Source: Crocinitomicaceae bacterium (lineage in GTDB: Bacteria; Bacteroidota; Bacteroidia; Flavobacteriales_D; Crocinitomicaceae). From it: a stretch of DNA of 64,000 nucleotides. Position 1 is the stretch's first letter. Each line of letters opens with the position of its first letter. The stretch is taken from the NCBI GenBank assembly GCA_033791225.1, contig JASJHD010000008.1, forward strand, positions 189,814-253,813, read 5' to 3'. The notes beneath the pieces were generated by a model. That model searched no databases and was not told the DNA's origin. It worked only from the letters and a program-made list of their open reading frames with translations. A program made the position numbers and the translations under genes. Below are positions 2,364 to 58,880 of the stretch, piece after piece.

Positions 2364-2505
2364 AAGTCGTGGTTATTGGTAGTTATATTCTTAATCACTC
2401 TTTTTTTCAAGTAATTAACTGCAAAGGTAAGTCATTTTAGCAAATCTATAAAATCAAACTGCCAAAATGCTAAAAGTTCGTAGTCTTCCCTTTTGAATTA
2501 TCGAG

Positions 2506-2513
2506 TATATTTG
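2506..2513 (+). promoter_or_regulatory. Bacteroidota sigma-A -7 box (TAnnTTTG) upstream of cysS
   Basis: TATATTTG is an exact match to the consensus and lies 27 nt upstream of the ATG at 2541. It sits inside the TTG-initiated extension of the track ORF (2493), which argues for the shorter start. Confidence 0.4.
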
Positions 2514-2540
2514 TTGTCATACATTGAATATAAAGCACCA

Positions 2541-4007
2541 ATGAAAGCAACGGCAAACGAATTAAAAATTTATAATAGTCTCAAAGGAGACAAAGAATTT
2601 TTTACTCCATTGAAAGATGGCTTTGTAGGGTTATATGTTTGTGGACCAACCGTCTACAGCAACGTTCACTTGGGAAATTGCCGTACGTTTATTTCATTCG
2701 ATATGATCTACCGTTATTTGATACATCTCGGTTATAAAGTGCGTTACGTGCGTAATATAACTGATGTTGGACATTTGGTGGATGATGCTGACGAAGGGGA
2801 AGATAAAATTGCAAAAAAGGCACGATTGGAGCAGCTAGAGCCTATGGAAATAGTTCAGCAGTATACTTTAGATTTTCACAAGGTGCTGGATCAATTCAAC
2901 AATTTAGCTCCGAATATTGAGCCTACTGCAACGGGACATATTATTGAGCAAATCGAGATGATTAAAACGATTCTTGACAATGGATTTGCTTATGAATCGA
3001 ACGGCTCCGTATACTTCGATGTAGAAAAATACAACGAAACACATCCATATGGTGAGTTATCTGGTCGAAAAATTGAAGATTTAATCTCCAATACACGTGA
3101 TTTGGATGGTCAAAATGAAAAACGAGCTCCTTTGGACTTTGCTTTGTGGAAGAATGCATCTGACGAACATATTATGAAATGGCCCTCACCTTGGGGAGTT
3201 GGGTTTCCGGGTTGGCATCTTGAATGTTCAGCGATGAGTACAAAATACTTAGGTGAACAATTCGATATTCACGGTGGTGGAATGGACTTAAAGTTCCCGC
3301 ATCATGAATGTGAAATAGCACAAGGAACAGCTTCAACTGGAAAATCACCCGTAGGATATTGGATGCATGGAAACATGCTAACATTGAACGGAAAGAAGAT
3401 GAGTAAGTCAACGGGAAATTCAATTTTACCTGATGAATTATTCTCGGGAGAAAATAACTTTATGGAAAAGCCATTCGATGCAATGGTGGTTCGTTTCTTT
3501 ATGATGCAAGCGCACTATAGAAGTACATTGGACTTTACTTCAGAAGCTTTATTGGCTGCAGAAAAAGGGTATAACAAATTAATGGAAGCGTTAAAATTGA
3601 TGAGTTCTTTAAAAGTTGGAAACTCTTCTTCGGAGGACGTGAACAAGATGATTGAAGGATTTTACACGGCAATGAATGATGATTTCAATGCTCCTATTCT
3701 TCTTGCCAATCTTTTTGACGCAGTAAGGTACATCAACTCTATCAACGATGGGAACGCTGAGATTTCTTCAGATGATTTAACAGCTTTACAGAACGCCATG
3801 AAAGCATTTACGCAAGATGTGTTAGGCTTGAAAACAGCAAGTGCGGGAAGTGATGAAAAATTGAATCCTGTAATGGATCTTGTTTTGGATTTAAGACAAG
3901 AAGCTCGTGCAAACAAGGACTGGGGAACTTCTGATAAAATTCGTGACGGTTTGGCTGCGGCAGGAATTGTTGTGAAAGACTCGAAGGAAGGAACTAGTTG
4001 GAACTAA
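2541..4007 (+). CDS. cysS: Cysteinyl-tRNA synthetase
   Basis: Class I aaRS motifs are present: [15 protein letters not shown] (HIGH-type) and KMSKSTGN (KMSKS). The overall layout is CysRS-like, including [10 protein letters not shown]. The start was moved from TTG 2493 to ATG 2541 ([14 protein letters not shown]). Confidence 0.97.
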
Positions 4008-4009
4008 GT

Positions 4010-4603
4010 CTAATTTACTTTTTTGAATTTTAAAGAGTGAAATGCTTTCTGCATTTCTTTCAGATGAACATTAATATCGTTGCTCATGTAGGTGACAATG
4101 GCATCCGTTACATCGTCTTTATGAAGATAAATGAACTGCCCAATTTTATACCCTTCGCCAAATTGACAATCGAATTCAAAGACACAAGTCCCACCATCGT
4201 CTGCGTTAAATTCCTTTTTAACTGCGCTAGGTGGAAATGACTCGATTTCTGGGAGCTGCCCATTGGTCATATTCATGGCATTAGCCATGATCATACTTTT
4301 GTACAACCTATTTGGCTCGAGCATCATTCTATTAGTGTCTTTCAATGATTCTTCATACTCTTTGAGAAAATCGTCCAATGGCCAAATAGTATAGCGCACT
4401 TCCGTCGTTTCTTCTTCATTCATGATAGCGAAATGATAGCTCAGGTCTCTATTTTCCTTAATATCAACAACTTTAAACCCCTCCGGCATTGTAAATACCA
4501 TTCCCGCCTGATCAACAAGCTTCATGAATTTTTTTAGTGCTCCTCTTTGCCCGTAACTTGCAAATGTGAGTAATAGAATGATTAGAACATTGGCTATTTT
4601 CAT
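4010..4603 (-). CDS. Hypothetical secreted protein
   Basis: Long ORF with a signal peptide (MKIANVLIILLLTFASYGQ) starting at ATG 4603. The track start at 4624 is TTG. I recognise no family motif. Confidence 0.7.
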   Translation of the reverse strand: MKIANVLIILLLTFASYGQRGALKKFMKLVDQAGMVFTMPEGFKVVDIKENRDLSYHFAIMNEEETTEVRYTIWPLDDFLKEYEESLKDTNRMMLEPNRLYKSMIMANAMNMTNGQLPEIESFPPSAVKKEFNADDGGTCVFEFDCQFGEGYKIGQFIYLHKDDVTDAIVTYMSNDINVHLKEMQKAFHSLKFKKVN

Positions 4604-4632
4604 GATTCGTGGATTGTCTTTCAAGTTCTAAT

Positions 4633-5172
4633 TTAAGGAACTATTTCAATTTTAGTTCCATCACCTATTGACTTATATAAATCTGTAATGTCTGCATTGG
4701 TAAGTGAGATGCAACCCAAGGTCCAATTGGTTTTATTTTTAATCATGCTGTCTGACCCTTCAGGAACTCCATGAATTCCTATTTCACCACCAATAGTGGC
4801 ACCGCTTCCTATAACTCCATCTGCTTTGCGTTTATTAAATCTACTCCAAGATTCTTTGTTAGGATAGTCGATCCAAATGAAATACTTCCAAGAGCCGTGT
4901 GCATACTTGCTTCTAATTCCAAAGGTTCCTTCTGGTGTGCAGCCATCTCCTTCTTGGTGCTTGTCTTTAATTGCATCGAAGCCAAAAACACACGGGTATG
5001 TTATCAGCAGCTTTGACTTATGATAGACCGAAAGAGTATAATCCGATTTATCAATGAGAACTTTCAATTCACTTTTTGGAATATGTTGACTTCGGACAAT
5101 GTCTTGCAATTTAGTTTGCCCATAAACTGCTGTGCCCAAAAGAATTAGAGCTGTTAGAATTATATATCGCAT
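4633..5172 (-). CDS. L,D-transpeptidase (YkuD domain)
   Basis: Signal peptide followed by the YkuD catalytic signature IGIHG....NWTLGCISL (His ... Gly-Cys). Confidence 0.85.
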   Translation of the reverse strand: MRYIILTALILLGTAVYGQTKLQDIVRSQHIPKSELKVLIDKSDYTLSVYHKSKLLITYPCVFGFDAIKDKHQEGDGCTPEGTFGIRSKYAHGSWKYFIWIDYPNKESWSRFNKRKADGVIGSGATIGGEIGIHGVPEGSDSMIKNKTNWTLGCISLTNADITDLYKSIGDGTKIEIVP

Positions 5173-5412
5173 AAAGATGTTTCCTTTTTAAATGTAAATT
5201 TCATTAAAAGTAACAAATATTACGCCTTGATCTTTTAGGCCTACTAAACCGTTTAGCTGTGTCGTTTTTCTTGTGCTTGCATATTACTTTCGCTCATAGT
5301 GGCAAAATATTCATGCATGCCGTTGCTTTGTTCGTTTGCTCGGGATCTTCAAGAATCATTGCTTAACTTCTAAGTAGTTCTTTCGAGTATTCATCCCGTA
5401 AATTGTTCCATT

Positions 5413-6072
5413 ATGATCCGTTCTGCTATCTTTTCGATCCTATTTATCATTCCTTTCGGCGCTCTTTGTACTATTGATGACAATACTATTTCCACTATCG
5501 ATTTTGTACAATTAGAAGCGCGGACTTCAGCAAATGTTGTTCACTTCAAATGGGATGTCAATTCCGAAATCAACGGTGCTACATTCTTTATCGAAAAATC
5601 TGGCAACGGAGACGATTGGAAAGAAATTGAGGAAATCCCTTCTTTGGGAAATCACATTGCTCCTCATACTTATAGAACTTCTGAAATTAACTCTGCCGAA
5701 AATGCATTGGAGTATTTTAGAATTAAGCGTGTAGATAAATTCGGAAATGCTTCAATTATGGATCAAGTAGAAATTGAACATGCAACATTATTGAGTCTTA
5801 GTTTAATTCCTTCACTCAAGAGCTCAAAAAAGCAACTCATCGTATCTTACAATTCTCTAATTATCACGAAAGGTGTCTTGCGTGTTCTGGATCAAGACGA
5901 CAACATATTGGAAGAGATTAAAGTAAACATTGACAAGGGCTACAATCGCTTGGTAATTAACACGAAGAATTATTTAAAGCAGCGCTATACTGTTGTTTTG
6001 GTAAATGCTGACGGTGGAGCTCTTCAAAAGATCTATGAGCACGGCAAGAAAATAGGGAAGACGAAATTCTAA
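5413..6072 (+). CDS. Hypothetical secreted protein (Fn3-like N-part, beta-rich C-part)
   Basis: ORF with an N-terminal hydrophobic leader. No diagnostic motif. Its 3' end overlaps the convergent DUF58 gene by 4 nt. Confidence 0.6.
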   Translation: MIRSAIFSILFIIPFGALCTIDDNTISTIDFVQLEARTSANVVHFKWDVNSEINGATFFIEKSGNGDDWKEIEEIPSLGNHIAPHTYRTSEINSAENALEYFRIKRVDKFGNASIMDQVEIEHATLLSLSLIPSLKSSKKQLIVSYNSLIITKGVLRVLDQDDNILEEIKVNIDKGYNRLVINTKNYLKQRYTVVLVNADGGALQKIYEHGKKIGKTKF

Positions 6073-7421
6073 ATCGAGCCCTTTGCCTTTAGCTCAAGGT
6101 ATTTGTTGATTGTGTTAATCGACAACTCATCTGGCAACGTAAGCACTGTTTGAATTCCATTCTGACGTAACTCTCTGGCAATTTTTGATTTGATTGAGAT
6201 CATTCGTTCTGCAACTGTTGCCTGATAAACTTCTTGAATAGAGGTCGAAGGACGATACGCCAACTCCTGCAGTTCGCTATTCTGGAAGAAAACAACCACG
6301 AGAACATGCTTTTGATTTAACCTACGCAACATTGGAATAGCTCTGCGCATTGCAAATTCAGATTCGAAATTGGTAAACAATACCAATAGAGAACGCGTTT
6401 TAATTGTACGACGAATAGAATTGTACAATAACTCGTAATTCCCCTCCTTGTACTGTGTACGTTGGTTGTACAAAGTCTCTTGAATTCTACGCATTTGTCC
6501 ACTGGAACGATCTGCACCAAGCAATGTTCCTATTTTATCAGAGTAGGTGATTAATCCAGCTTTATCTCCTTTTCTCAGTGCAATATTCGAGAACACCAAG
6601 GTAGAGTTGATCGAATAATCAAGCATCGATAAGCCGTCAAATTCCATTTGCATACTACGACTCTTGTCAATGATACAGTAGATACTTTGCGACTTTTCCT
6701 CTTGGTATTGATTCACCATGAGTTCATTTCTACGACTCGTCGCTTTCCAGTTTACGGTTTTCAATTCGTCTCCTTGAACATAGGTTTTAATCTGCTCAAA
6801 TTCACTGTTGTTACCAAGTCTACGAATCTTTTTTATCCCTGCGCTTGTCTTTTGCTGCTGGAAAACGAGCAATTCGTACTTCTTCATTTGAAGCACCGAA
6901 GGATATACGTGAACTGTTTCCTCTAGGTCTAGATCTAATCTTCGAGAGGCCAAATAGAATATTGACCGAATCATAACAAACGGGCTCCCGAACTCATATT
7001 CTCCTCTTCTTTTTGGAGTGAAAGTATAGCTGAACACTTCTTTCGTAATTGGTTTCAACATCCCGCTAAACGAAGACGTTCTGTCTTGCATTTCAACAGG
7101 GTACCCTTCAATTAACGTAAAGCTGATCAATTGTGAAGTTGCATTTGTTACCTCAAGCGTAACTTTGTTCTTATCACCTAAATCCAATCGACTTTTAACG
7201 TTTCTCTTGACAATTAGCGGATGCTTTTCGCTGAATACCAGCACAACGTCAATGATAGTTAATCCAAATAGTGAAGCAAGAACCACCGTTGCTACGAATT
7301 GCAATTCTGGCATTGAATACGCCAAAACGAACAAAGCGATGACAACCACAAACAATGCAAAAAACCACTTGGTTAAATGGATGTTGTGAAAAAACTTAGC
7401 TATGAGGGAAATTGCTCTCAA
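6069..7421 (-). CDS. DUF58 (vWA-like) protein, MoxR partner
   Basis: Two N-terminal TM helices, then the DUF58-type segment EFEQIKTYVQGDELKTVNWKATSRRNELMVNQYQEE followed by IIDKSRSM. The apparent TTG start lies 1 nt after the MoxR stop. Confidence 0.85.
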   Translation of the reverse strand: MRAISLIAKFFHNIHLTKWFFALFVVVIALFVLAYSMPELQFVATVVLASLFGLTIIDVVLVFSEKHPLIVKRNVKSRLDLGDKNKVTLEVTNATSQLISFTLIEGYPVEMQDRTSSFSGMLKPITKEVFSYTFTPKRRGEYEFGSPFVMIRSIFYLASRRLDLDLEETVHVYPSVLQMKKYELLVFQQQKTSAGIKKIRRLGNNSEFEQIKTYVQGDELKTVNWKATSRRNELMVNQYQEEKSQSIYCIIDKSRSMQMEFDGLSMLDYSINSTLVFSNIALRKGDKAGLITYSDKIGTLLGADRSSGQMRRIQETLYNQRTQYKEGNYELLYNSIRRTIKTRSLLVLFTNFESEFAMRRAIPMLRRLNQKHVLVVVFFQNSELQELAYRPSTSIQEVYQATVAERMISIKSKIARELRQNGIQTVLTLPDELSINTINKYLELKAKGSI

Positions 7422-42822: not shown

Positions 42823-42851
42823 AGAGCCTTTCTTTCGAGAAGGGCTTTTTT
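42823..42851. terminator. Rho-independent terminator shared by convergent SBP and recO genes
   Basis: AGAGCCTTTCTTTCGAGAAGGGCTTTTTT forms an 8-10 bp stem with a 6-nt loop and a T6 run. Confidence 0.8.
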
Positions 42852-43545
42852 ATGCTCCCAAAACTTCTTTGACGATGTCGTAAGAATCCAATGTCTCAAA
42901 ACGAGGTATGTGGATTCTGAAATATTCTAGCATGATTTCTAGCGCTTCTTCTCGCTCCTGTTTGTTAGGATTCTCTTTAGGTGATTGTCCGTTTAGCAAA
43001 CTTCTTATAAGAATAACAGATGGACCAGAGTAAGATCTTTCAGCTATGCTTGAGGTCATTTGAAAGATTCCTGAATCCAAATTGAAAACACCTGCCTCTG
43101 GAATCTCACAAAGCGGTGCAAATCCTAAATTATCGCAACATTCAATTAAGAACTGAACTGGAAACAAGCCGAGTTCATCTGTCGTGTCTAGGTGTTCAAT
43201 AGACTTCTTAATGAACTGATAAAAAACCTCATCAACATCGCCTTGATGTACACACTTGTTAATGGTTTCAGCCATAAAAAATGCAACCGCACCCTTTATT
43301 GGATTGAATTGAAATGTAAGTGCTTTACTGCTCTCCACTTGAGTAAGGTTCAAAAGGTCACTTTCCTTTCTTCCGTAATAAGTTAGTTCTGATATTGATA
43401 GAGGATAAATGTTGTGAGCTTTCTTCTTCCCACCTTTAAAAATAAATTTTTGAAGGCCTCCTTTTTGGGTATAGAATGTTGTGATTAAACTGGAGTCGGA
43501 ATATGGAGTTCTCTGTAAAAATATTCCTTCGTCAGTCGATTTCAT
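42850..43545 (-). CDS. recO: DNA repair protein RecO
   Basis: The N-terminal OB-fold pattern DEGIFLQRTPYSDSSLITTFYTQKGG and the 231-aa size are typical of RecO. Confidence 0.88.
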   Translation of the reverse strand: MKSTDEGIFLQRTPYSDSSLITTFYTQKGGLQKFIFKGGKKKAHNIYPLSISELTYYGRKESDLLNLTQVESSKALTFQFNPIKGAVAFFMAETINKCVHQGDVDEVFYQFIKKSIEHLDTTDELGLFPVQFLIECCDNLGFAPLCEIPEAGVFNLDSGIFQMTSSIAERSYSGPSVILIRSLLNGQSPKENPNKQEREEALEIMLEYFRIHIPRFETLDSYDIVKEVLGA

Positions 43546-43555
43546 GTGTCATCGA

Positions 43556-45871
43556 TTAATTGACTACGAGTACTTTTCCAACCTTTCGGCCTTTTGTTTC
43601 ATCATCGTTTGGAGCGGTCCAAATCAGGTAAACTCCGGTTGAAACTCTCTCTCCTTGCAATGTTCTTCCATCCCAAGTTGCGGTTCCACCGTTGGATGTT
43701 GTTTTGTACACCAAATTACCAGCGATATCTGTAATCTTGACATCTGAATCATACTTTATCCCTTGAATGGTGATTGGTCCATCATAATCAGGTCGGGCAG
43801 GATTTGGGAAAACGGTAACGTTGTCGTAATTCCTTGTCCCTTGTGTGGCATCCGTTCTATACGAGATCAATCCTTGATCAGTAATGATATACAATTCTCC
43901 TGTTTGCTGATCCAGCTCAATATCCATGATGTTGTTAGACGGGAGTGGTGAATTCTCAATCGTATGTTGCTCGATGATTTCTAATCCGTCTTCCGAAAGC
44001 AAAATGACTCCAGCATTCGATGTTGCGAACCACTTTCTATTCGCGCCGTCTACCTCAATGTCTGTAATATTTGTTGAACCCAAAACATACTCCACATTTC
44101 CTTCAAACTCAAGTTTAATACGCTGAGCGTTGTATTCTCCTGCTGCTGCACCAAAGGCACTTGAAGAATTATACAACACTGCGAAACCATTGTCCGTTCC
44201 AATCCAAATTTCATCGTCTAAATCAACGGCAATTGCATTGATCTCATTGGACGGTAATGCTCCAGTATATTCCCCAGAATTCAAGACAACGTATTCATCA
44301 TCAGAAGGACTTGAAATTGTTCCATTGTCATTAAATCCAATTACTCCAACATTTCGTGCTAGAAACCACTTATTGTCATTGTTGTCAATTACAATCTTCT
44401 TTGTGAACTTATTAATTGTAGATCCACCTGTGTACATCGAATACCATTCGCCGTCAGCTGTGTATACTTTCAATGCATTGTTACAATGCCCATTGACCAC
44501 CCACAAATTTCCCATATCATCATAGGCCAAGTCGCTTACGAATGTCCCTCCTTGGTTATTGGAGTGATATTCCAATCCTGAATTAACTGGCGTTAAAGTA
44601 TCGTGATCACCAGACCTGTTTACAATTGTGACTGGAATTTCGGAGAATGATCCGATAGCAATTTCATCCTCATTTGCAGGGTTAACAGAAACACCCAAGA
44701 CGTCATAGACTTCAGCACCATTCCATTTAGACAAGGTACTATTGTCATACAATGACCAGCCTTCATCTTCAAAGACATAGGCCCCTGAAGTATTGTATGT
44801 TTGGAAAATTCCTGAGAGCCCTCCGCCGGCCACGGCCAAACGACCACTGTTCCAATCCATTGCGTAAAAATTGCTTTTTGGCGGACCAGTGATTGAAATT
44901 CTTGTTCCAGACAATCCGTTTAGTTCAACCAAACCATATCTGTCATCAGCCACGTAATATTTTCCATTATTGATAGTAATTGCATTTGGCCTTACACCAT
45001 CAAACGTATATGTGTAAAGCAGATTGCTCACACTCAAATCAGAATTATACAATTTAGATGCATCGTAATAGTTCACCACCAACATTCCGTTCACTTCTTG
45101 CACAGATCTGATATCAGAATTAAACGTTTCTGTAAATGCAGTATCCATTGATGTTTCCGTCAGGCGATAAACTGTATCAACACCACTCCAACCAGCTGCT
45201 ATAAGAGAAAAGTAAATCTCATCACCAACGGTAACAATGTTTTTGTATTCGTCTATAAATAACACCTCAACTCTAGCATCTTCTGTCCATTGTGTTGGGT
45301 CAGCAAGTGCTGGATTGTTTATTAATCCAACATACATTCGGTCTGTTGAAATTGCAAATATGGAATCATTTCTGAAGCACAAATCGTTGATCGGGGCTGT
45401 ACCATTTGTAGGGTAGTAAGTATCTCTCACTTCGTCCTTAGTAGGATCAATCTTTACAATAGCAAATCCTGTAGCCAAATAAACATAATCGCCATGGGCC
45501 ACAATGCTGTTGATCTTTTTCGACCCTTGGATTTGTGCCAAATTAATCGCTGGAATATTCGTGACTCTGTTGTCTTTGATTTTGTCCAGGTTCCCATTTT
45601 CATATCCAACAAAGACAGAATTATTGGATGGTGAATAACCCAAACATGAAATAGCAACATCTGAAAGTCCATTCACTGCATCCCAAAGAGCTGTCTCGTT
45701 GTTGTGCACGTCATATTCAGAAACACCAAATTCATAAGCTGTAAAGATTTTGGATCCTAGGCTTACAACGTCTATTGACTTAGACGCCGGAACGTGCATA
45801 CGCCATTGTCCAGTACCCACCTGAGCGGACAGTCCAAAAGCACCAAAAACAAAGATGATAAGTAGTCGCAT
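43556..45871 (-). CDS. Double beta-propeller (two-component-regulator-propeller type) protein with T9SS CTD; PorZ-like
   Basis: Signal peptide, ~650 aa of propeller-blade repeats, and the CTD VTVFPNPARPDYDGPITIQG...TGVYLIWTA. Its size (771 aa) and architecture match PorZ of Porphyromonas gingivalis. Orthology has not been verified. Confidence 0.6.
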   Translation of the reverse strand: MRLLIIFVFGAFGLSAQVGTGQWRMHVPASKSIDVVSLGSKIFTAYEFGVSEYDVHNNETALWDAVNGLSDVAISCLGYSPSNNSVFVGYENGNLDKIKDNRVTNIPAINLAQIQGSKKINSIVAHGDYVYLATGFAIVKIDPTKDEVRDTYYPTNGTAPINDLCFRNDSIFAISTDRMYVGLINNPALADPTQWTEDARVEVLFIDEYKNIVTVGDEIYFSLIAAGWSGVDTVYRLTETSMDTAFTETFNSDIRSVQEVNGMLVVNYYDASKLYNSDLSVSNLLYTYTFDGVRPNAITINNGKYYVADDRYGLVELNGLSGTRISITGPPKSNFYAMDWNSGRLAVAGGGLSGIFQTYNTSGAYVFEDEGWSLYDNSTLSKWNGAEVYDVLGVSVNPANEDEIAIGSFSEIPVTIVNRSGDHDTLTPVNSGLEYHSNNQGGTFVSDLAYDDMGNLWVVNGHCNNALKVYTADGEWYSMYTGGSTINKFTKKIVIDNNDNKWFLARNVGVIGFNDNGTISSPSDDEYVVLNSGEYTGALPSNEINAIAVDLDDEIWIGTDNGFAVLYNSSSAFGAAAGEYNAQRIKLEFEGNVEYVLGSTNITDIEVDGANRKWFATSNAGVILLSEDGLEIIEQHTIENSPLPSNNIMDIELDQQTGELYIITDQGLISYRTDATQGTRNYDNVTVFPNPARPDYDGPITIQGIKYDSDVKITDIAGNLVYKTTSNGGTATWDGRTLQGERVSTGVYLIWTAPNDDETKGRKVGKVLVVN

Positions 45872-45936
45872 TCTGTTTATTTACTCTGCAATAACGGCAA
45901 AATTTCAAAGTTATTGGATTTCATTGTGAAAACGGC

Positions 45937-47364
45937 TTATTCAAGGACTTTTCTGTACAAACTTGTACCGATGTCATCATACGTTTCGATGACCTCATAC
46001 TGTGTTGTATCAAACTCGAACTGATCTGTGAAGTTGTAAACGAATGTTGTCGTCGAATCTGGATCGTGCAATGCAGTTTCAATGTGTAAACTTTGCGAGT
46101 TGATGTAGTAATTCAACGTAGATTCAAAAAGCCAATGATTGCTCAAGGTAACTTTCTCTCCCTTCTCTTTATCTGTCAAAGACTCAATAGTCGCAGCGAC
46201 ATCACTCGTATGCGCATCGAATTTCCAGACCTTAGTGTATTGGGCTCCTGTGTCGGCCCACTTAAAAAAGTTCAAGGTGATTATTGTCATAATTGCAAGT
46301 ATGATTACCGTTCCTGATATCCGCGCAACTTTTGAAGAAAAATGAAGGTAGAATTCACTGGACAAATAATAAACTATCAAACCAAAAACAGGAACAAAAT
46401 ACATCGCGGTTCGTTCCGCTGGGTACTTTGCATCAAATAAAATATGCTGCGCTATAGTTGCAATCACCAACATTCCCAAAATTAAAAGCAACTTGAATAG
46501 AGGAGAGTCGAACCGTTTTTTAACAACTACAATGATCACTGACAAAACTAGAATGATGCACACGACCGTTGTCAGAATATAGAAATTGTTGAAACGTTCC
46601 AACACATTAATGTACAACGTTGCAAGTGTGTCACTAAAGGAGTCCACTCCAAAATACAACTGTTTGAGCTCCTTAAGAAATAACAAGCGTCTGATTGCTA
46701 GGATCAATGGTACAATTGCCAGCAAAATAATGATGGAAAATTGCACATGGTTTTTCTTGTTGATACCCTCTGAATTCTTTGTCAACCAGTAATATTGAGC
46801 AATGCACAAGAATAGAATCGTCATGAAGAAATTGATGGTCGAAAGATTTGAAAACATCGCCAATATTGCCATCACAATGCACAAGGTCATATCGTTGATG
46901 TACGATTTGAAGGTATGCTTCACCATGCCAGTTCGAAGGAAAAAGTACAAACTACCCATCATGAAACCGATGGAAAGGCCATAGCCCCGTGCTAACGAGA
47001 AGAAATCAACGAGAAAAGGGTTCCAGAGTAAGACAAACGCCCCAAGCAAAACAGCTGCCTCATGCTTTTCATTTTTAAGAATACGAAATACAAAGAGTAT
47101 GTAAACGGCACACAAAAGAACATTTGGAAGTCGAAGTGCAAATTCTCCTTCGCCGAAAATAGCACTACTAATCCTCATCAAAAAGGTGTTCAAGATATGA
47201 TGATTGGCTGTTGTCAATTGTGTTTCATTCCCTTGAAGGATCGTATACGTAATTGATTCATCGATAGTGAAGGATAAGTAAAATGCTCGAAGAGCCACCA
47301 TCAGTAAGATTAACGCTCCCGACAATAAGACAGGGCTGATAATCGATCTCTTAGTGCTAGCCAT
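45937..47364 (-). CDS. GT-C fold glycosyltransferase (ArnT/PMT_2, GT39/83-like) polytopic membrane protein
   Basis: The first loop has the acidic motif FTIDESITY, followed by ALRLPNVLL, which is typical of PMT_2/ArnT-like enzymes. There are at least 10 TM segments and a soluble C-terminal domain. Confidence 0.7.
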   Translation of the reverse strand: MASTKRSIISPVLLSGALILLMVALRAFYLSFTIDESITYTILQGNETQLTTANHHILNTFLMRISSAIFGEGEFALRLPNVLLCAVYILFVFRILKNEKHEAAVLLGAFVLLWNPFLVDFFSLARGYGLSIGFMMGSLYFFLRTGMVKHTFKSYINDMTLCIVMAILAMFSNLSTINFFMTILFLCIAQYYWLTKNSEGINKKNHVQFSIIILLAIVPLILAIRRLLFLKELKQLYFGVDSFSDTLATLYINVLERFNNFYILTTVVCIILVLSVIIVVVKKRFDSPLFKLLLILGMLVIATIAQHILFDAKYPAERTAMYFVPVFGLIVYYLSSEFYLHFSSKVARISGTVIILAIMTIITLNFFKWADTGAQYTKVWKFDAHTSDVAATIESLTDKEKGEKVTLSNHWLFESTLNYYINSQSLHIETALHDPDSTTTFVYNFTDQFEFDTTQYEVIETYDDIGTSLYRKVLE

Positions 47365-47373
47365 CTGTTGTGA

Positions 47374-48087
47374 TTATTTTAATCGAAGTACGCCGTAAAG
47401 AAATATTGTTCTGAAAACACGTAATGCATCAATGGTCCGGAGCTTTTTCCCTTGTCCCACATTACGTGGAAAATAGTGCACTGGAACTTCTGCAACGTTG
47501 TTCCTTTTGATACGAAGTGCCTTCATGATTAACTCTGCTTCAAAGCCAAATCGGTTTTCCTTGAGGTTGATCTGTTCGTATAAATTTCGAGTAATGAGTT
47601 TGTATCCGCATGCCATGTCTGTCAATTTTACATTGATCAAAACAGAAGTCACAAAAGTGAAATATTTGTTACCGATGTAGCGTCTATACGAACTAATAGG
47701 TCGTATAAGTCCCGGTAAATAACGTGAGCCGTTTACGAATTCCACTTTCAATTCATGCATGGCGATCAACATGGACGGAATATCTGAAGGCAGTAATTCC
47801 AAATCTGCATCTTGAATGAAAAACACATCTCCTGTTGCCTGCTCAAACCCGTAACGTACGGCAGCACCCTTGCCACTATTCACTGGCATTTCGAAAACGC
47901 GAAAGTTCTCTTTCTGCTCAACAAAGTCAGTTACACGTTTCATGCTCTCGTCTGATGAAGCGTCATTGACACAAATAATCTCTGTTGATTCAACAAATTC
48001 TGGCCAGTCCATATTTGCCAAACGTCCAAGCGTCACAAGAACGGTATCTTGCTCATTGTAAAATGGTACGACGATGGAAAGCTTCAT
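47374..48087 (-). CDS. GT2 glycosyltransferase, polyprenyl-phosphate sugar synthase-like (Dpm1/ArnC/GtrB type)
   Basis: LSIVVPFYNE, NDASSDES, GKGAAVRYG and FIQDADLE (DXD) motifs. Confidence 0.85.
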   Translation of the reverse strand: MKLSIVVPFYNEQDTVLVTLGRLANMDWPEFVESTEIICVNDASSDESMKRVTDFVEQKENFRVFEMPVNSGKGAAVRYGFEQATGDVFFIQDADLELLPSDIPSMLIAMHELKVEFVNGSRYLPGLIRPISSYRRYIGNKYFTFVTSVLINVKLTDMACGYKLITRNLYEQINLKENRFGFEAELIMKALRIKRNNVAEVPVHYFPRNVGQGKKLRTIDALRVFRTIFLYGVLRLK

Positions 48088-48093
48088 TCAGCG

Positions 48094-50811
48094 TTATTGG
48101 ATAATTTTGGCTCTAAAGTTAGAAAACGTAAAAGTCTTTGACGAATTATTCCATAAATACATTTTGAAGGAACGGCCGTCTTCGAGTACAGGTAATAAGT
48201 AGCCGTCTGCAAAGCTTGTTGATTCTTCCGAGTAGAGTAATTCATGCATGGGTATTGTTGTAGCGAAGAGGATTCGATCTTCTATTTTGGTTTCGATCAC
48301 TACATAAAAGTCTTGAACCCCGACTGATTCATGCACGTTCATTCCGAACAACAGTTGTCCTTTTAAATCAGTCAGTCCATAACTGTTCAAATCAATGTCG
48401 AAGTATCCTTTAGATGGAATGACATGCTGTGTAGTGTCAATGTCGTATTTGCCCCTTGAGAATATAAACGATCCATCTTGTTCTATCTGTTCATCGTTGA
48501 AGAAACTTAGAATTGACAACAGTTTTGGGTCAATATCCATGTTGCAATCAGTAAGAGTAATCTCACCTTGATTCTCATTTGCGAAACGGTAGACCTCTTG
48601 ATAATCTTCTGTGACCAAATTGGAATTGAACTCCACTATTTTTTCACCACTGACCAATTTAAACCCTTCCGATGGAGTTGGACCAAAGCTTAAATAGCGT
48701 GCAATGACTAAGACGAAAACAACTCCAACCAGAATAAAACGATTTCTGACAGATCCTACTCTTGATTGTTGAACGAAGTAGATGAGGAGTATTGCAATGA
48801 ATCCAAATGTGCTCAGGTAGTACAACCATTGAATTCGGTCATTTTCATACATGAATTCGACAACTGACCTGCCTTCATTGAGCACAACTCCTTGTTCAAA
48901 TACATTGACGTCAACAATCTTTGCAGCCTCTCCATTTACTTGTGTAATCCACCCTGGAAAAGAGCCTTGTTGGTAAATGAGGGTGTCTCCTGAATGAGCA
49001 TTAAGTACTTCAATCTCTATCCTGTTCGGGCTAAATTTCCTAATGTTTTCGGAACCACTTACGCCAGTCAAATACACCATGGAATTATTACCTAATTCTT
49101 CGTTTAATGGAGCATTCTCTATGTGCACATCGTCACGCCCTGCCAAATGAAAGGAAGAATAACTTTCAAGCGTTGGGAGGTTTGTGAAGTTCCCTTGGTT
49201 TCTCCAAATCGAAGCATAGATTCCTTGTTGTAGGTTGTGCCCCATAGTGACACCATTGTTTGGAATAAAAAAGCCTTCTTTCTTGGTCGATAATTGATTG
49301 TCTAACGTGGCAACCTTATATTCACCGTGAACAGTAACAGGCATGTTGAATTGAGAAATAATCCCCAGTTCTAGCACCACAAAAAGTAAAACAACCGATC
49401 GAGATTGTCGTTTCAATAAAATCAACAAGAACACCAGTAAGAGAACTGCGTGTCCAATGGATTGCAAGAGAATTCCAGCGCTCCAGCCCATTCTTCTGAA
49501 CGTATATGCCCATGACCCATTGAAGGCTTCACTCACTATTTCCCAAGAATCGGAACTGATAATGGCACTCACCCCGTAAAACACAACACTGATGGCTACG
49601 AAAATCATTAGGTGTTTTTGTTTCCCTTCTTGCAAGTAATTCTGAATTCCGAAACACACCAAGATGAGTAAAGCTATCCATGTGAAGTAGCGGAAAAAAG
49701 AAGCGTAATAGAATTGATCACAACCCGGAACGAACTTATAGAAAAAGGGCTGGACCGGTGTGTATGGTCCAAGAGCCGCTAGGCCATAAATGAAGCCGAA
49801 AATAAGTAAAATGATAACTGTTGGAGTAAGTCGTTTCTTTAATCCACGGATGGCATATAGTATAAAGAAGAAAGATAAAACTCCTGAAAAAATGTTCTGC
49901 GCCGATCGTGATGTTCCTTGGTATTCTTCCTGAACAGAAGCCAATGGAAATATGGAGGACCCCAATGATTTAGGGTGAAAATGAATCAATTGTGATTCTT
50001 CCAAAGTTAAGCCTGAAAGCCTTGATAAATGCGGGAAAACTTCTGATAAGGAGACAACAATTCCTGCGAGTAAAAGAGCTAACCCCGCAAAGGTCCATAA
50101 ATGGCCAATCACGAATCGCTTGAGCCGTTCCATTTCTTTTTTCCGGATGAAATCAATGAGATAATAGCCGCCAATTGCAACCACTACATAAAACAACATG
50201 ATCGACACGGCCTGATATCCTGCTGCGAGCATGAGGAACATAAACAAGATCAATCCGACAATGTCTTTTCGATTAAAATCGCTGTTCAGGGCTTTTATAT
50301 ACGAGCCCAAAGCCCAAGGCAACCAAACCGCTCCGAGAATAGAAATCATTGACTGGCCGTGCCCTACAACAATACCCGAAAGCATAAACAATACACCGCC
50401 AATAAACCAAACCGATTTATCGAGCTTGAGTTGTTTAAGTAAGAATCGGAAGCCCAATCCGCCTATGGCAAGATAGAACAGAAACAACCAGTGCAAAGTG
50501 CTTACATTGAATCGGGTGAACAAGGAAACAAGAAATAATTCAGGGTTCCAAATAGAGTACTGATGATCGGCATAAAAAGGATAGCCTCCGTCTTGAAATG
50601 GATTCCATAACGGTACCATTCCTTGTCTTAATGATTCCGAACCATAGAATCTCCATGGTAAATACACATCGATGGCATCGTATTGGAGGGCATAAATTCC
50701 TAAAGAAATCGGCCACATAACAATAACTGCAATCAAGAAATAAAGCAGAAAAGGATACTTCTCCGACAAGTACTTGACAACGGTCTTGCTACTGTTCCAA
50801 AAATTTCTCAA
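48094..50811 (-). CDS. YfhO family membrane protein (GT-C-like)
   Basis: The 905-aa protein has an N-terminal DAIDVYLPWRFYGSESLRQGMVPLWNPFQDGGYPFYAD segment, about 13 TM helices and a large C-terminal extracytoplasmic domain. Apparent TTG start. Confidence 0.75.
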   Translation of the reverse strand: MRNFWNSSKTVVKYLSEKYPFLLYFLIAVIVMWPISLGIYALQYDAIDVYLPWRFYGSESLRQGMVPLWNPFQDGGYPFYADHQYSIWNPELFLVSLFTRFNVSTLHWLFLFYLAIGGLGFRFLLKQLKLDKSVWFIGGVLFMLSGIVVGHGQSMISILGAVWLPWALGSYIKALNSDFNRKDIVGLILFMFLMLAAGYQAVSIMLFYVVVAIGGYYLIDFIRKKEMERLKRFVIGHLWTFAGLALLLAGIVVSLSEVFPHLSRLSGLTLEESQLIHFHPKSLGSSIFPLASVQEEYQGTSRSAQNIFSGVLSFFFILYAIRGLKKRLTPTVIILLIFGFIYGLAALGPYTPVQPFFYKFVPGCDQFYYASFFRYFTWIALLILVCFGIQNYLQEGKQKHLMIFVAISVVFYGVSAIISSDSWEIVSEAFNGSWAYTFRRMGWSAGILLQSIGHAVLLLVFLLILLKRQSRSVVLLFVVLELGIISQFNMPVTVHGEYKVATLDNQLSTKKEGFFIPNNGVTMGHNLQQGIYASIWRNQGNFTNLPTLESYSSFHLAGRDDVHIENAPLNEELGNNSMVYLTGVSGSENIRKFSPNRIEIEVLNAHSGDTLIYQQGSFPGWITQVNGEAAKIVDVNVFEQGVVLNEGRSVVEFMYENDRIQWLYYLSTFGFIAILLIYFVQQSRVGSVRNRFILVGVVFVLVIARYLSFGPTPSEGFKLVSGEKIVEFNSNLVTEDYQEVYRFANENQGEITLTDCNMDIDPKLLSILSFFNDEQIEQDGSFIFSRGKYDIDTTQHVIPSKGYFDIDLNSYGLTDLKGQLLFGMNVHESVGVQDFYVVIETKIEDRILFATTIPMHELLYSEESTSFADGYLLPVLEDGRSFKMYLWNNSSKTFTFSNFRAKIIQ

Positions 50812-50880
50812 TCCCTTGTGCGTTTATGAATATTGGGTTCGGGTGTTGCTAAAGATAGTTGTTTGCGTGTAAATCGTTGA

Positions 50881-51582
50881 TTACGCTTTTACTTCATGGT
50901 CTGGGAAATCCGAAATCTTCCAAAGCCCCATGCTTTTGTCTGTGAATTTTTTGCCTTCTGTGCATTTCTCATTGAACACATACAAAGGTTCGGGGAAATT
51001 AAAAGGCGCTTCCTGAAAATTTAACCATCGCCAACCGCCAGTAACTATGTCCATATTTTTGGTCTTCTCAGGGAAGGTTGTCGTTAGCAGATAGGTCGAA
51101 TTACTTTTCTTAATGTTATTCAAGGCTTTCAAGATATTTTCCTGAGACAAATGCACGAAACAATCACGTACAAACACAAGATCGTAAGATTCCATGGAAT
51201 CTGAAACCAAATCCAATTGAATGAAGTTCTTCTCTGGATATTTTTTCGCTGTGCGGTCAATTAACTCTTGTACAATATCTGCTCCTGTGTACTTTATATC
51301 TTTCAGATCTACTTGGCTTATCCAATAATGATCTCCACAAGGTGCATCTAAAATTGATTTAATGTCGAACTTCTCAATGATTTTTGGTAATTCTCCACGG
51401 ACAACTTCCGTTTGCTCAAGGTCAGAGCCTTGTCCTGAAACCGATTCATCGCCTTCCCAACTATTGGACGCATAGATAGAATCAAATACCTGTTGGGTTG
51501 ACTTATCCTTGTATTTATAGCGTGCATAAACGTTAAAAAACGTAAGCACAAAGGGAAAGTACTTTTTGAGGAATTTTCTCAT
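50881..51582 (-). CDS. Class I SAM-dependent methyltransferase
   Basis: Motif I (SILDAPCGDHYW) and the post-I acidic residue (YTGADIV) are present in a 233-aa protein. Confidence 0.75.
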   Translation of the reverse strand: MRKFLKKYFPFVLTFFNVYARYKYKDKSTQQVFDSIYASNSWEGDESVSGQGSDLEQTEVVRGELPKIIEKFDIKSILDAPCGDHYWISQVDLKDIKYTGADIVQELIDRTAKKYPEKNFIQLDLVSDSMESYDLVFVRDCFVHLSQENILKALNNIKKSNSTYLLTTTFPEKTKNMDIVTGGWRWLNFQEAPFNFPEPLYVFNEKCTEGKKFTDKSMGLWKISDFPDHEVKA

Positions 51583-57600: not shown

Positions 57601-58526
57601 AATTGTCCAGCATCTGCATCTGAAGCATTGACATCGAAACAGATTGTCGCACCTTCACAAATGGTGATTTCGTAAACTCCTGGAACACCATTAATTCCTG
57701 ATATTGTGGGGATGGTATTGGTACATGGACGAATCACGAATTGGATGTCACGCATGATTGACCCAATCAGTACTCCATTTCTATACTCTTCAATTAATAT
57801 GGCTACTACAGCTACTTGAGGGACGTTTGGCGTGAAAGTTATTTGTCCAGTTGCGGGGTCCAATACTAAAGGAACTGTAAAAGGGTTTACTCCACTAAAC
57901 CCACCGTTATAGTTTACGGAGGTTCCTGCGGATTGCAAAGCATTCACAAGTGAATAAACCAACAAATCACCGTCAGCATCAAATGCCAATTGCTGAAAAT
58001 TTATCGTTTGCCCAACGCATCCAAAGAACTGAGGGACGCTTGAAAAGGCAGGAGATGTATCTGCTAAACCTCCAGTGTTGTCTAAGTGAGCTTCAATATA
58101 AATCGCTTGACTACTGGGTCCAGATAAATTCGTGATTGCGGCGTTTCTACAGCACGCGCTGGTCCACAGTACCCAATCAGAACAACCTGGAGGTAAATTT
58201 AATGTTCCTTCAAATACCAATAATTCTATTCCCAAACTTCCCCCACCGTTACAAGCGCTGGGTTCTGAAGGACACAATGGAGTAACATCTGTTGTTGACT
58301 GTAGGCTCAGTGTAATGCTTGAATTCACTCCGCATGACGCCGATGAATAATTTACGGTTTGTGATGTTCCTACGGTGACCCCGTTACAATCACGGTATAC
58401 TTTAAATGTTACCAAGTATTGATTTGGCCCAACGTATGTATAAGTAAGTTCTCCACCTGAATAGTGCGACGCGCTTGCCATAAGCCCAAATGAAATTGTA
58501 AAAATAAGAGCTAAAATGGCGCGCAT
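51621..58526 (-). CDS. Giant (about 2301 aa) cell-surface adhesin with T9SS type-B (gliding-motility-associated, CHU_C-type) C-terminal domain
   Basis: The signal peptide starts at ATG 58526 (MRAILALIFTISFGLMASA), followed by SHYSGGELTYTYVG...YRDCNG. Ig-like modules, a beta-helix-like segment, a Gly-rich core, 7 x 54-aa repeats and a PKD-like module (WSFGDGE) follow. The C-terminus is YYVPNTFTPDGDEFNQDFRPV...IYNRWGELIFE...WDG......SGTYTW. The track start at 58673 adds 49 non-signal residues and would contain the promoter box. Confidence 0.9.
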   Translation of the reverse strand: MRAILALIFTISFGLMASASHYSGGELTYTYVGPNQYLVTFKVYRDCNGVTVGTSQTVNYSSASCGVNSSITLSLQSTTDVTPLCPSEPSACNGGGSLGIELLVFEGTLNLPPGCSDWVLWTSACCRNAAITNLSGPSSQAIYIEAHLDNTGGLADTSPAFSSVPQFFGCVGQTINFQQLAFDADGDLLVYSLVNALQSAGTSVNYNGGFSGVNPFTVPLVLDPATGQITFTPNVPQVAVVAILIEEYRNGVLIGSIMRDIQFVIRPCTNTIPTISGINGVPGVYEITICEGATICFDVNASDADAGQLVSMVYDNSIPGAVFNLGGTPTNPVGTFCWSTSIGDVGSYPFSITSEDDACPLIGQNTAVYTINVVPNPHPVVDAGLDQSICAGETVILNATSGADPLTIASYEWTPVTDLTNPANATTDATPGSTTSYTVTLTYTDGCTSTDAAMITVLSDPAADVFPDAADACAGANFLLTGTTDQVGMNFEWFDPAMTSLGTGTVAGSQTTMSVTVPSTAGTYAYILVVTNPTSGCQSTDTAYLTVGTPPALPSCVNIYVSTTGNAAAAGTQTAPTTLAEGLNMAACNDAVIKLATGTYNIDNALTIGSFVTLEGGFNQGAGWTKTSLPGATTINRTSANPEGPVNGQRLVAFYANGSIGFRLQDLTVTTDNGNQPGMSTYGLHLTACGDYNIVRCQIFSGDAAQGILGSLGAPGETGVNGAGGQNGNNDDDNNGGGGGNGGNGGGAANAGAGGNCCSVNAFNGGAGGAPVGINGGGGAGGGSGGGEDRDGGVGGNGGGGGGASGTAGQESGCNSSVNCGSSESGNDAGNGVAGANGTNGAAGSAGAHIGGFWTPGGIGGNGTNGTGGAGGGGGGGGAGEGGLFCIDGHGSGGGGGGGGGQAGTAGAGGTGGGSSFAVYLFLNGTNGNIIDSDLTSGTLGAGGTAGAGGNGGNGGNGGNGSTYTGGEVGCGGDGGIGGKGGNGGDGGSGQPGETSQTYTGGGSALATSITNFGLTTQPTITAENINCTDTDVDFTAPGSVTWNFTGNATPQSPTGALVTTQFSVVDRYDIIAGVDTYTGFHNIAFSNNIIPEIISTAPALTPDTFILCVGDFATFESLYYGDTYLWDFDGAIPNPGNIQVVTSQFNTPGFFTISMVMTTDCCGMAPADIVYLHVLPVPAVGGSGDVTMCEGESSVLSLFGLAPTDSVVWSPTTGLVPAGIGSVSVNPLTTTTYTATVYSTTIVGGQMIVSCPTSIDFTVTVNQFPTVTMSSTDVLCSDDGTATATVSSPGLYNFSWDNGIIENGVTSSTITGLPFANYGVTITDATTGCAITDSIDVFPSASVPVVYIQSLTGTCEGFTDGEATANASGGAAPIVFTWSTTDVGPTLTGLAEGAYWVTATDALGCSSTVTFDIPEHHMPDAEVITNGPICSGDSAYFSIIGHDGATLIYNFGGLDSTLLFTSDTMYVTVYNVTTDLTMNLISIGDVHCSNTLGTTATVVVNPIPTVLIAHNGPICDGEDAQFDLTGAVDALVTYSINGGANQTITLTGGVGTIIIPAVSVNQVLLLDSIDDGNCPQALGTMDSVVVYPVESSIEDTSVCENTNHTYPDGAVELIIGNTIHLSTLTSVLGCDSIVTTNVTMSPIYVSVDDVSVCENDDYTYPDGVIETITANVSHVSNLLSVNGCDSTITTNITMLPTYAAIVDVAICEGDDYTYPDGTIETILGNTTQVSNLISSLGCDSIITTNITMNPVYASVDAVSVCENDDYTYPDGVVETILANVTHASNLLSINGCDSIITTNVTMLPVYALIVDVGVCEGDDHTYPDGTVETIIANSSHVSNLTTALGCDSIITTNVTMNPVYATIDAVSVCENEAYTYPDGTVETILVDVTHISDLLSINGCDSIITTNVTMLPTYSTTVDVAICEGDDFTYPDGITHTNILLDEVYTSQFAGLGGCDSLIITNVTVNPLPTVDAGTSVEICEGESVTLTAINPSGATIAWDNAVNDGVEFTPAVTTTYTVTATSADGCIATDDVNVNVHLNPQALFLADTLSGCSPLSVTFTNVSLGDPINCEWSFGDGEFDSGCTSVTHVFDESGAFTIQLNITDVFGCVDTLEYVDYIAVFDSPLAGFIADQYELDIFDTEVDFENTSVDAVTYEWIFGDESVSTEENPTHIFPDDADADYIVTLIATNGVCVDTVQAVVSINDVIVYYVPNTFTPDGDEFNQDFRPVFTSGIDEFNFVMRIYNRWGELIFETSDVSSGWDGTYMGHLVQSGTYTWTIQFQELMSDKDHTATGHVNVLR
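52620..53745. repeat. Seven in-frame 162-bp tandem repeats with a 324-bp (two-unit) super-period
   Basis: Protein unit: [VI]CE[NG]..[YH]TYPDG..E.I..N..H.S.L.S..GCDSI[IV]TTN[IV]TM.P.Y......V. Units alternate between VCEN-type and ICEGD-type. At the DNA level, units two apart are visibly about 90% identical (for example 52795-52860 against 53119-53184). Confidence 0.9.
55520..56400. repeat. Glycine-rich low-complexity coding segment (~295 aa)
   Basis: GGNGGNGGNGGNG, GGGGGGGGAGEGG and GGIGGKGGNGGDGGSG tracts are interspersed with Cys-containing islands (GNCCSVNAF, GCNSSVNCG, LFCIDGHG, EVGCGG). By eye, roughly half the residues are Gly. Confidence 0.9.
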
Positions 58527-58600
58527 AAGTAGAGTTTTGTCTACACCGTAAGATGCAGGTTGAAGTAGTAATAGTCTTATCCAATCGAAATCGGAATACT

Positions 58601-58608
58601 CAAAGTTA
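58601..58608 (-). promoter_or_regulatory. Candidate -7 box (TAACTTTG on minus strand) for the giant adhesin gene
   Basis: The + strand reads CAAAGTTA, 74 nt upstream of ATG 58526. Confidence 0.3.
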
Positions 58609-58747
58609 TAGAAAACCCAGCGTTTAACAAATAATGGAGTGAGATACCTGCTATTTCTCCATTTCAAATTCATTAAATTATTGTGAGAAATTGCGAGAGC
58701 AATGTTAACTTTGCGACATGATTAGTAGGAATTCGACTAATTGTACT

Positions 58748-58786
58748 GCCTCGTGGCGCAACTGATACTTTGGTGTATTTCGTCAC
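58748..58786 (+). pseudogene. Degenerate copy of the 5' half of tRNA-Arg
   Basis: GCCTCGTGGCGCAACTGATA aligns with tRNA positions 2-22 (GCCCTGTGGCGCAACTGAATA). GGTGTATTTCGTCAC aligns with the anticodon arm (CTGGATTTCGGCTCC). There is no T-arm or 3' acceptor strand. Confidence 0.55.
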
Positions 58787-58801: not shown

Positions 58802-58875
58802 GGCCCTGTGGCGCAACTGAATAGCGCACTGGATTTCGGCTCCAGCGGTTACAGGTTTGAATCCTGTCAGGGTCA
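58802..58875 (+). tRNA. tRNA-Arg (anticodon TCG)
   Basis: Manual fold of 74 nt: acceptor GGCCCTG/CAGGGTC, D-stem GCGC/GCGC, anticodon stem CTGGA/TCCAG with loop TTTCGGC, 5-nt variable loop, T-stem ACAGG/CCTGT with loop TTTGAAT, discriminator A. CCA is not encoded. Confidence 0.9.
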
Positions 58876-58880
58876 CAGAT

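Follow-up and report, generated by a model that had tools for sequence, protein, structure and literature searches.

The window analysed here comprises 64,000 nucleotides (nt) of a Crocinitomicaceae genome (assembly GCA_033791225.1, contig JASJHD010000008.1, positions 189,814 to 253,813), represented by a 4.33-Mb assembly with a completeness of 99.8 %. The subject is a row of seven minus-strand open reading frames (ORFs) in which the gene of a YfhO-like glycosyltransferase of the GT-C type is placed upstream of porZ, encoding a component of the attachment complex belonging to T9SS, the type IX secretion system. The row consists of recO, porZ, the genes of a PMT_2-type GT-C, a glycosyltransferase of family 2 (GT2), the YfhO-like GT-C and an S-adenosylmethionine (SAM) dependent methyltransferase, and finally the gene of a giant adhesin (Table 1). 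The gaps between them, counted from recO, are 10, 65, 9, 6, 69 and 38 nt, and the G+C content is even along the stretch with the exception of the glycine-rich part of the adhesin. The YfhO-like gene was found to recur beside porZ-recO in diverged Bacteroidia, and this gene, with the GT2, PMT_2 and methyltransferase genes beside it, is tentatively interpreted as a glycosylation module acting on the glycan that PorZ handles.

Table 1. Features of the porZ locus in the window
Feature	Positions	Strand	Characteristics
recO	42850-43545	minus	TIGR00613 65.7 bits (cut-off 48.7); RecO_N/C matches
porZ	43556-45871	minus	T9SS attachment-complex component; two beta-propellers and a type-A C-terminal domain (CTD)
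promoter-like box TAACTTTG	45906-45913	minus	Bacteroidota -7 consensus TAnnTTTG, 42 nt before the porZ start codon; consensus match only
PMT_2 (ArnT/GT39-like) GT-C, 475 amino acids (aa)	45937-47364	minus	PMT_2 (PF13231) 34.4 bits (cut-off 26.1)
Dpm1/GtrB/ArnC-like GT2, 237 aa	47374-48087	minus	Glycos_transf_2 98 bits; no transmembrane helix
YfhO-like GT-C, 905 aa	48094-50811	minus	TTG start; PF09586 matches of orthologues and predicted GT-C fold
class I SAM methyltransferase, 233 aa	50881-51582	minus	Methyltransf_25 28.9 bits (cut-off 27); also Methyltransf_12/23/11
giant T9SS adhesin, 2350 aa	51621-58673	minus	type-B CTD TIGR04131 46 bits (cut-off 35); CHU_C 50.7 bits (cut-off 27)
partial tRNA-Arg copy	58748-58765	plus	18 nt of the 5' end, beside the tRNA gene
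tRNA-Arg(TCG)	58802-58876	plus	divergent from the cluster

Direct scans of the 905-aa protein with Pfam and NCBIfam gave no match, in the case of Pfam not even at E ≤ 10. The YfhO family (PF09586) was matched by 20 of its 30 orthologues, with the best E-value of 1.9e-8, and more distant homologues carry precomputed PF09586 matches. An AlphaFold2 model based on the orthologue alignment (predicted local distance difference test 86.5, predicted template-modelling score 0.86) was compared with known structures using Foldseek and retrieved the GT-C enzymes AftD, EmbA/B/C, AglB and ArnT with a probability of 1.0 (TM-score for ArnT 0.49); a profile of the orthologue alignment run against PDB sequences returned noise only. 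Assignment to the YfhO family, resting on the orthologues and the predicted fold, is the weakest of the family calls made here. The gene row and the families proposed earlier from the letters alone (the sequence-only reading) were otherwise upheld, the YfhO call by way of homologues and the predicted fold and without a direct Pfam match.

The predicted first outer loop of the YfhO-like protein contains the QYDAIDVYLPWR motif with Asp45 and Asp48 (numbering of the 905-aa protein, approximately positions 50668-50679), invariant in the 30 orthologues, and the extended pattern D-x-x-D...PWR...PLWNPYQ is kept throughout the Bacteroidia family. Behind the multi-helix membrane core the model shows a beta-sandwich, then a further two helices and, at the C-terminus, another beta-rich domain, which is variable and poorly conserved. 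Since two helices lie between them, both soluble domains of the modelled protein should face the periplasm. Translation from the TTG codon at 50811 includes an N-terminal transmembrane helix that homologues share, and this start was accepted on that ground; the database entry, an 874-aa call with an ATG start, is too short and loses that first helix (50719-50811). The search of a 50 %-identity library of 1.8 billion proteins yielded 844 clusters at E ≤ 1e-30, only 8 of them of the full-length window type. A second gene of the YfhO family, a 995-aa frame that matches PF09586 directly (36.2 bits), is present in the same genome far from porZ (G000:C15:306697-306900).

The gene situated 6 nt downstream of the YfhO-like gene encodes the GT2. 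Its best relatives in PDB are the Pyrococcus dolichol-phosphate mannose synthase (DPMS, 5mlz), GtrB (5ekp) and ArnC (9hwj), and as these closest solved relatives all make polyprenyl-phosphate sugars, the GT2 is a putative polyprenyl-phosphate-sugar synthase. Partial NCBIfam matches were obtained to PgfS, AglJ, ArnC and PpgS, the best being PgfS with 77 bits against a cut-off of 500. The 475-aa GT-C has about 9-10 hydrophobic or transmembrane segments according to hydropathy analysis; its homologues are named ArnT-family or GT39 by some sources, and a sequence search for a solved relative gave none. The methyltransferase has no transmembrane segment.

PorZ was identified by the NF052228 equivalog model (525.7 bits against a cut-off of 260), and its residues 21-751 align full length to the structure of Porphyromonas gingivalis PorZ (PDB 5m11, E 5e-73). 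The type-A sorting domain scored 24.6 bits in TIGR04183 (cut-off 23). porZ is present in a single copy in the genome, and the PorZ assignment made in the sequence-only reading can be regarded as secure. recO, 10 nt downstream, is the conserved partner of porZ, probably co-transcribed with it and probably unrelated to it in function.

To follow the YfhO-like gene in relatives, the neighbourhoods of its orthologues were drawn from public contigs and from the relatives' genomes. The gene adjoins porZ-recO in at least 10 distinct relatives belonging to two Flavobacteriales lineages. In the window, as in loci L036 (genome G021), L011, L015, L037 (genome G023), L017 and L060, its place is directly upstream of porZ-recO, and the PorZ proteins of these loci are 48-66 % identical to that of the window. 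In the second lineage (L012, L013 which equals L064, L059 which equals L068, and L065), only a tRNA-Arg gene is found between the YfhO-like gene and porZ. PorZ of this lineage is only 34 % identical to the window protein, which makes it as distant as other families of the order, and the YfhO-like gene is located there past the 3' end of the tRNA gene, 9 nt after pgk. What lies further outside varies among the porZ-linked loci, and in L062 one gene separates the YfhO-like gene from porZ. The orthologue is rare: sampling of 25 genomes from the genus turned up 3 carriers, and sampling of 401 from the order turned up 1.

The linkage extends across the class. A profile of the YfhO-like orthologues was run on 401 evenly drawn Bacteroidia genomes and detected homologues in 58. 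Apart from the window genome, 56 Bacteroidia genomes had both a homologue and porZ, and in 12 of them, representing 8 further GTDB families, the two genes were within 2 kb of each other; in two more genomes of family f20 they were 5-9 kb apart. A random gene would be expected that close to porZ in approximately 0.2 % of genomes (about 0.002 per genome). Ten of the 12 linked loci were verified by tblastn and ORF maps, and the remaining two (G452 and G743) rest on coordinates. As the sampled genomes are related, family counts are the fairer measure, and the linkage was seen in about 9 of roughly 24 families having a YfhO-like gene. In the 40 relatives, none of the 28 matches to PMT_2 paralogues and none of the 38 matches to GT2 paralogues, used as controls, was near porZ. 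The link to PorZ drawn in the sequence-only reading from a single locus is thus borne out in many diverged genomes of at least nine Bacteroidia families.

Six gene orders were distinguished (Y, the YfhO-like gene; P, porZ; R, recO): Y-P-R in f58, f38 and the window's family, Y-tRNA-P-R in the second Flavobacteriales lineage, a divergent arrangement in f29 and f46, P-R-Y in f20, f51 and the metagenome locus L077, P-Y-R in f71, and a convergent arrangement in f23. The linked loci of f29, f20, f51, f38 and f46 have no tRNA gene. Adjacency of porZ and recO was itself found in most Flavobacteriales and also in loci of other Bacteroidia. In two porZ-linked loci, L146 (G477, 4846-7027) and L149 (G500, 1962-5056), two overlapping ORFs take the place of an intact YfhO-like gene, which could reflect a frameshift, decay or an assembly error. 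The f20 loci L147 (G476) and L150 (G553) have a gene of a T9SS-sorted S8 subtilase between porZ and recO, and the block of L147 also includes an Acyl_transf_3 gene and two PMT_2 GT-C genes.

The Bacteroidia YfhO-like proteins form one well-supported clade with the shared N-terminal motif, and the porZ-linked members are spread through it. Their tree is compatible with vertical descent accompanied by losses. In the PorZ tree, proteins with and without a neighbouring YfhO-like gene are interleaved, and at least three changes are needed to explain the presence or absence of this neighbour. Horizontal transfer between the two Flavobacteriales lineages was considered and is not required: a quick tree hinted at incongruence, and in a careful one the genus-level rows made up one side of a branch.

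The other genes of the module are less widely kept. The GT2 is conserved in the window's genus-level clades only; in L011, L015, L017, L036, L037 and L137 it is 70-88 % identical, and in each of these loci its gene is placed after the YfhO-like gene and before porZ. Among genomes with no YfhO-like gene, the closest GT2 orthologue (56 % identity; L136, G036:C3, 6903-9152) is encoded immediately upstream of a PETase-like hydrolase that has an SprB repeat and a T9SS type-A CTD. The methyltransferase gene precedes the YfhO-like gene in three loci, the window, L063 (84 % identity) and L017 (62 %), and methyltransferase homologues with 36-46 % identity are encoded elsewhere in genomes lacking a YfhO-like orthologue. 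An orthologue of the 475-aa GT-C in the same position was found only in L137 (59 % identity, compared with 88 % for the GT2 and 75 % for PorZ of that locus) and was absent from the 40 relatives searched, so the gene is best read as having been inserted, in this lineage specifically, between porZ and the GT2 gene. One of its homologues, P0080, belongs to an O-antigen-like cluster with a Wzy_C gene. In distant families similar partners reappear: GT2-methyltransferase-YfhO-like and PMT_2-YfhO-like rows are placed near porZ in f20, and f46 has a methyltransferase-YfhO-like pair. The methyltransferase, GT2 and PMT_2 genes of these rows are not orthologous to those of the window. Since non-orthologous methyltransferase and PMT_2 partners recur in this way, the four-part composition is not a one-off.

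On the opposite side the row is bordered by the divergent tRNA-Arg(TCG) gene. In almost every sampled Flavobacteriales genome, relatives without the module among them, such a tRNA-Arg gene is located 40-300 nt upstream of porZ, and tRNA-Arg(TCG) divergent from porZ-recO is, judged from loci L018-L034, the ancestral layout across Flavobacteriales. Because of this short distance in module-less relatives, the tRNA-porZ stretch of the window (12.9 kb; L017 has 4.3 kb and L015 has 3.5 kb) is regarded as an insertion between the tRNA gene and porZ in the window lineage. G038 with the order pgk-tRNA-porZ represents the matching empty site for the second lineage. The partial tRNA-Arg copy is conserved and old, and was not left behind by the insertion, since copies of 18-22 nt are found beside the tRNA gene also in the empty-site genomes L025, L030 and L034. 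The tRNA gene as an integration site was therefore set aside, there being no integrase or att repeat pair found at the locus and the linkage occurring also in families without the tRNA; the idea is kept only as part of an alternative discussed below.

The promoter-like box in front of porZ recurs at -41 to -43 in L137, L026, L025, L019, L031, L028, L060 and L012. The sigma-70 promoter scan showed no enrichment of promoter-like sites (42 found, 44.6 expected), and the terminator scan detected none in the intergenic gaps.

The combination of a GT2 making a polyprenyl-phosphate sugar with outward-facing GT-C enzymes, put forward in the sequence-only reading as the enzymatic logic of the row, agrees with the present analysis. 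The core would be a two-enzyme glycosylation module of the CsbB/YfhO (GtrB/GtrC, ArnC/ArnT) type operating outside the cytoplasm. The GT2 would charge undecaprenyl phosphate with a sugar, a flippase, possibly of a non-GtrA type, would turn the lipid-linked sugar over, and the YfhO-like GT-C would transfer the sugar to a periplasmic acceptor using the acidic motif of its first outer loop. Two extras of this lineage may modify the product: the cytoplasmic SAM methyltransferase, probably by methylation of the sugar, and the PMT_2-type second GT-C, probably by addition of a second sugar. The acceptor would most likely be the LPS (lipopolysaccharide)-type surface glycan that is bound by PorZ and handed to the PorU sortase to serve as the anchor of T9SS cargo. 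The module would decorate this anchor and would not be needed to build it, since it is optional: most carriers keep the YfhO-like family elsewhere and most porZ-bearing genomes lack it. We give a probability of roughly 0.45 to the view that a CsbB/YfhO-type periplasmic module decorates the glycan handled by PorZ.

Several arguments point to an LPS-type acceptor. In many Bacteroidia a member of the YfhO-like family has its gene at the porZ-recO locus, and the only known ligand of PorZ is anionic LPS (A-LPS), which in P. gingivalis PorZ delivers to PorU (PMC8545088); binding and delivery of a glycolipid by PorZ are known only from that species. Cytophaga hutchinsonii requires its O-antigen ligase for CTD proteins to be anchored (PMC11611037). 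The position of the 475-aa GT-C homologue in the O-antigen-type cluster with the Wzy_C gene favours the same type of acceptor. Finally, neither PorZ nor the adhesin contains a Ser/Thr-rich disordered stretch (no 40-aa window reaches 45 % Ser+Thr), the kind of tract used in YfhO-type protein glycosylation by streptococci (PMC12041528).

A number of observations weigh against this interpretation. recO is an equally faithful neighbour of porZ with no plausible functional tie to it, so adjacency alone is not proof of function. Approximately three quarters of the genomes with the YfhO-like family keep it away from porZ (e.g. f36, f57 and L061, the last being a true exception to the adjacency among orthologues), and most porZ-bearing genomes do without the family, which is missing from 343 of the 401 genomes sampled in the class. 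A joint transcript of the YfhO-like gene and porZ is impossible in the second lineage of Flavobacteriales, where the tRNA gene between them is on the opposite strand. A promoter-like box of porZ's own is retained about 42 nt ahead of the start codon, in loci having the module as in those lacking it. The genome-wide search for a GtrA/GtcA flippase (PF04138) gave no match above the cut-off, the best being 22.7 bits in a frame with stop codons. The acceptor is deduced indirectly, from the arguments listed above. To our knowledge A-LPS-like anchoring is established only in Bacteroidales and not in Flavobacteriales.

The most serious alternative, rather unlikely in our estimation, is that the genes serve an ordinary optional decoration of an envelope glycan (O-antigen, capsule or other polymer) with no special tie to T9SS, and that their position reflects an old synteny block or an insertion-prone tRNA-Arg spot with local reshuffling. 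The porZ-recO pair itself illustrates how functionally unrelated genes stay adjacent across the class. The ancestral tRNA-Arg layout, with the module on either side of the tRNA gene, the patchy distribution of the orthologue, the location of most YfhO-like family members away from porZ and a YfhO-like tree that fits vertical descent with losses are all in keeping with this explanation. It does not readily account for the YfhO-like gene and porZ-recO being no more than 2 kb apart, in six different gene orders, in nine or more families, several of them with no tRNA gene at the locus. No integrase or att pair was found, and in 14 genomes without the YfhO-like gene nothing else is inserted between the tRNA gene and porZ. 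The GT2 and PMT_2 paralogues showed no porZ linkage.

The acceptor could also be a protein, with the YfhO-like GT-C O-glycosylating PorZ, T9SS cargo or proteins of the attachment complex in the periplasm; this we consider improbable. YfhO-family enzymes are known to glycosylate proteins as well as teichoic acids, PgtC2 and PgfM1 of streptococci being the examples (PMC12041528), and the best NCBIfam match of the GT2 is to PgfS, though far below the cut-off. PorZ is itself exported via Sec and T9SS, and the porZ linkage speaks for this possibility to the same extent as for decoration of the PorZ-bound glycan. The known targets are of the Ser/Thr-rich disordered type, however, which PorZ and the adhesin lack. 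Interleaving in the PorZ tree of proteins with and without the YfhO-like neighbour, and the O-antigen-like surroundings of the 475-aa GT-C homologue, also argue against a protein acceptor.

The adhesin contains PKD, Ig_7 and glycine-rich regions, and its start is probably near 58526, about 49 codons past the first ATG (58526-58673), at a signal peptide (MRAILALIFTISFGLMASA). The sequence-only reading had seen in it a possible partner or target of the module. That the module is dedicated to glycosylation of this adhesin is very improbable: apart from the adjacency in the window, the same adhesin-methyltransferase junction was found only in L063, whose adhesin is 76 % identical in the last 159 aa and which, as a close relative (76-84 % identity), shares recent history with the window, every more distant locus has other upstream genes (HMG-CoA reductase and a tRNA gene in L017, a tRNA gene in L015, pgk in L012, L013 and L059), and a Ser/Thr-rich tract is missing. 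Being kept only in the nearest relative, the adhesin is best treated as a bystander, a neighbour by recent history only.

The closest parallels of the putative module are the CsbB-GtcA-YfhO system of Bacillus subtilis and GtlA/GtlB of Listeria, in which an undecaprenyl-phosphate-sugar GT2 and a YfhO-family GT-C are encoded by adjacent genes. These are three-component systems for teichoic acid glycosylation, and common to them and, by prediction, to the window is a GT-C whose acidic loop faces outward and which has a large extracytoplasmic domain. Unlike in those systems, the bacterium concerned is Gram-negative and devoid of teichoic acid, its GT2, with only 237 aa and no transmembrane helices, is a short form, and the GtcA/GtrA flippase was not found in the genome. 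The GT-C of the window, too diverged for a direct PF09586 match, has in addition two further transmembrane helices and another beta domain at the C-terminus, and its gene is linked to porZ. The likeness to GtrA/GtrB/GtrC and ArnC/ArnT of Proteobacteria, responsible for O-antigen glucosylation and lipid A modification, respectively, would consist in periplasmic decoration of LPS from a polyprenyl-phosphate sugar, as proposed here. These systems are likewise optional and patchily distributed, and ArnT/GT39-like enzymes are the group into which the 475-aa PMT_2 protein falls; the GT-C families differ, however, and the window has neither a phage context nor genes of the aminoarabinose pathway.

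Streptococcal protein O-glycosylation by PgfS/PgfM1/PgfM2 and GtrB/PgtC2 (PMC12041528) also employs a GT2 with GT-C enzymes of the YfhO family, a single locus encoding two of the latter. The pgf genes adjoin adhesin genes in streptococci, whereas the adhesin linkage seen here is not conserved, and the Ser/Thr-rich disordered regions targeted there are absent from PorZ and the adhesin of the window. With the PorU/PorV/PorZ/PorQ complex of P. gingivalis and its A-LPS and Wbp/Vim linking-sugar pathway (PMC8545088, PMC7468200) the locus shares a true PorZ orthologue and, according to our proposal, the presentation of a dedicated glycan by PorZ. The A-LPS pathway is assembled in the cytoplasm, and a YfhO-type periplasmic step is not reported there.

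Periplasmic glycosylation by three-component systems is familiar. That it is recurrently coupled to porZ of T9SS, and any role of YfhO-type enzymes in Bacteroidota, are apparently undescribed, as the literature search found neither PorZ together with YfhO nor PorZ together with recO. We tentatively suggest, with some doubt, that the Bacteroidia YfhO-like GT-C family characterized by the D-x-x-D...PWR...PLWNPYQ pattern is an accessory part of the T9SS attachment machinery. Its periplasmic glycosylation would create or tune the glycan recognised by PorZ, or would glycosylate PorZ itself, and in this way set the anchor of type-A-CTD cargo in non-Porphyromonas Bacteroidota. If the link is only historical, the case shows, like porZ-recO, that deep synteny need not mean shared function. 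The proposal bears on the anchoring of T9SS cargo outside Porphyromonas and Tannerella and on the ligand of PorZ there; a review on C. hutchinsonii states that the mechanism 'deserves further study'. The glycosyltransferase family recurring at the porZ locus provides a concrete, deletable candidate for an enzyme shaping the anchor glycan. If the proposal is true, YfhO-type three-component glycosylation, so far studied in Firmicutes, would extend to the Gram-negative Bacteroidota.

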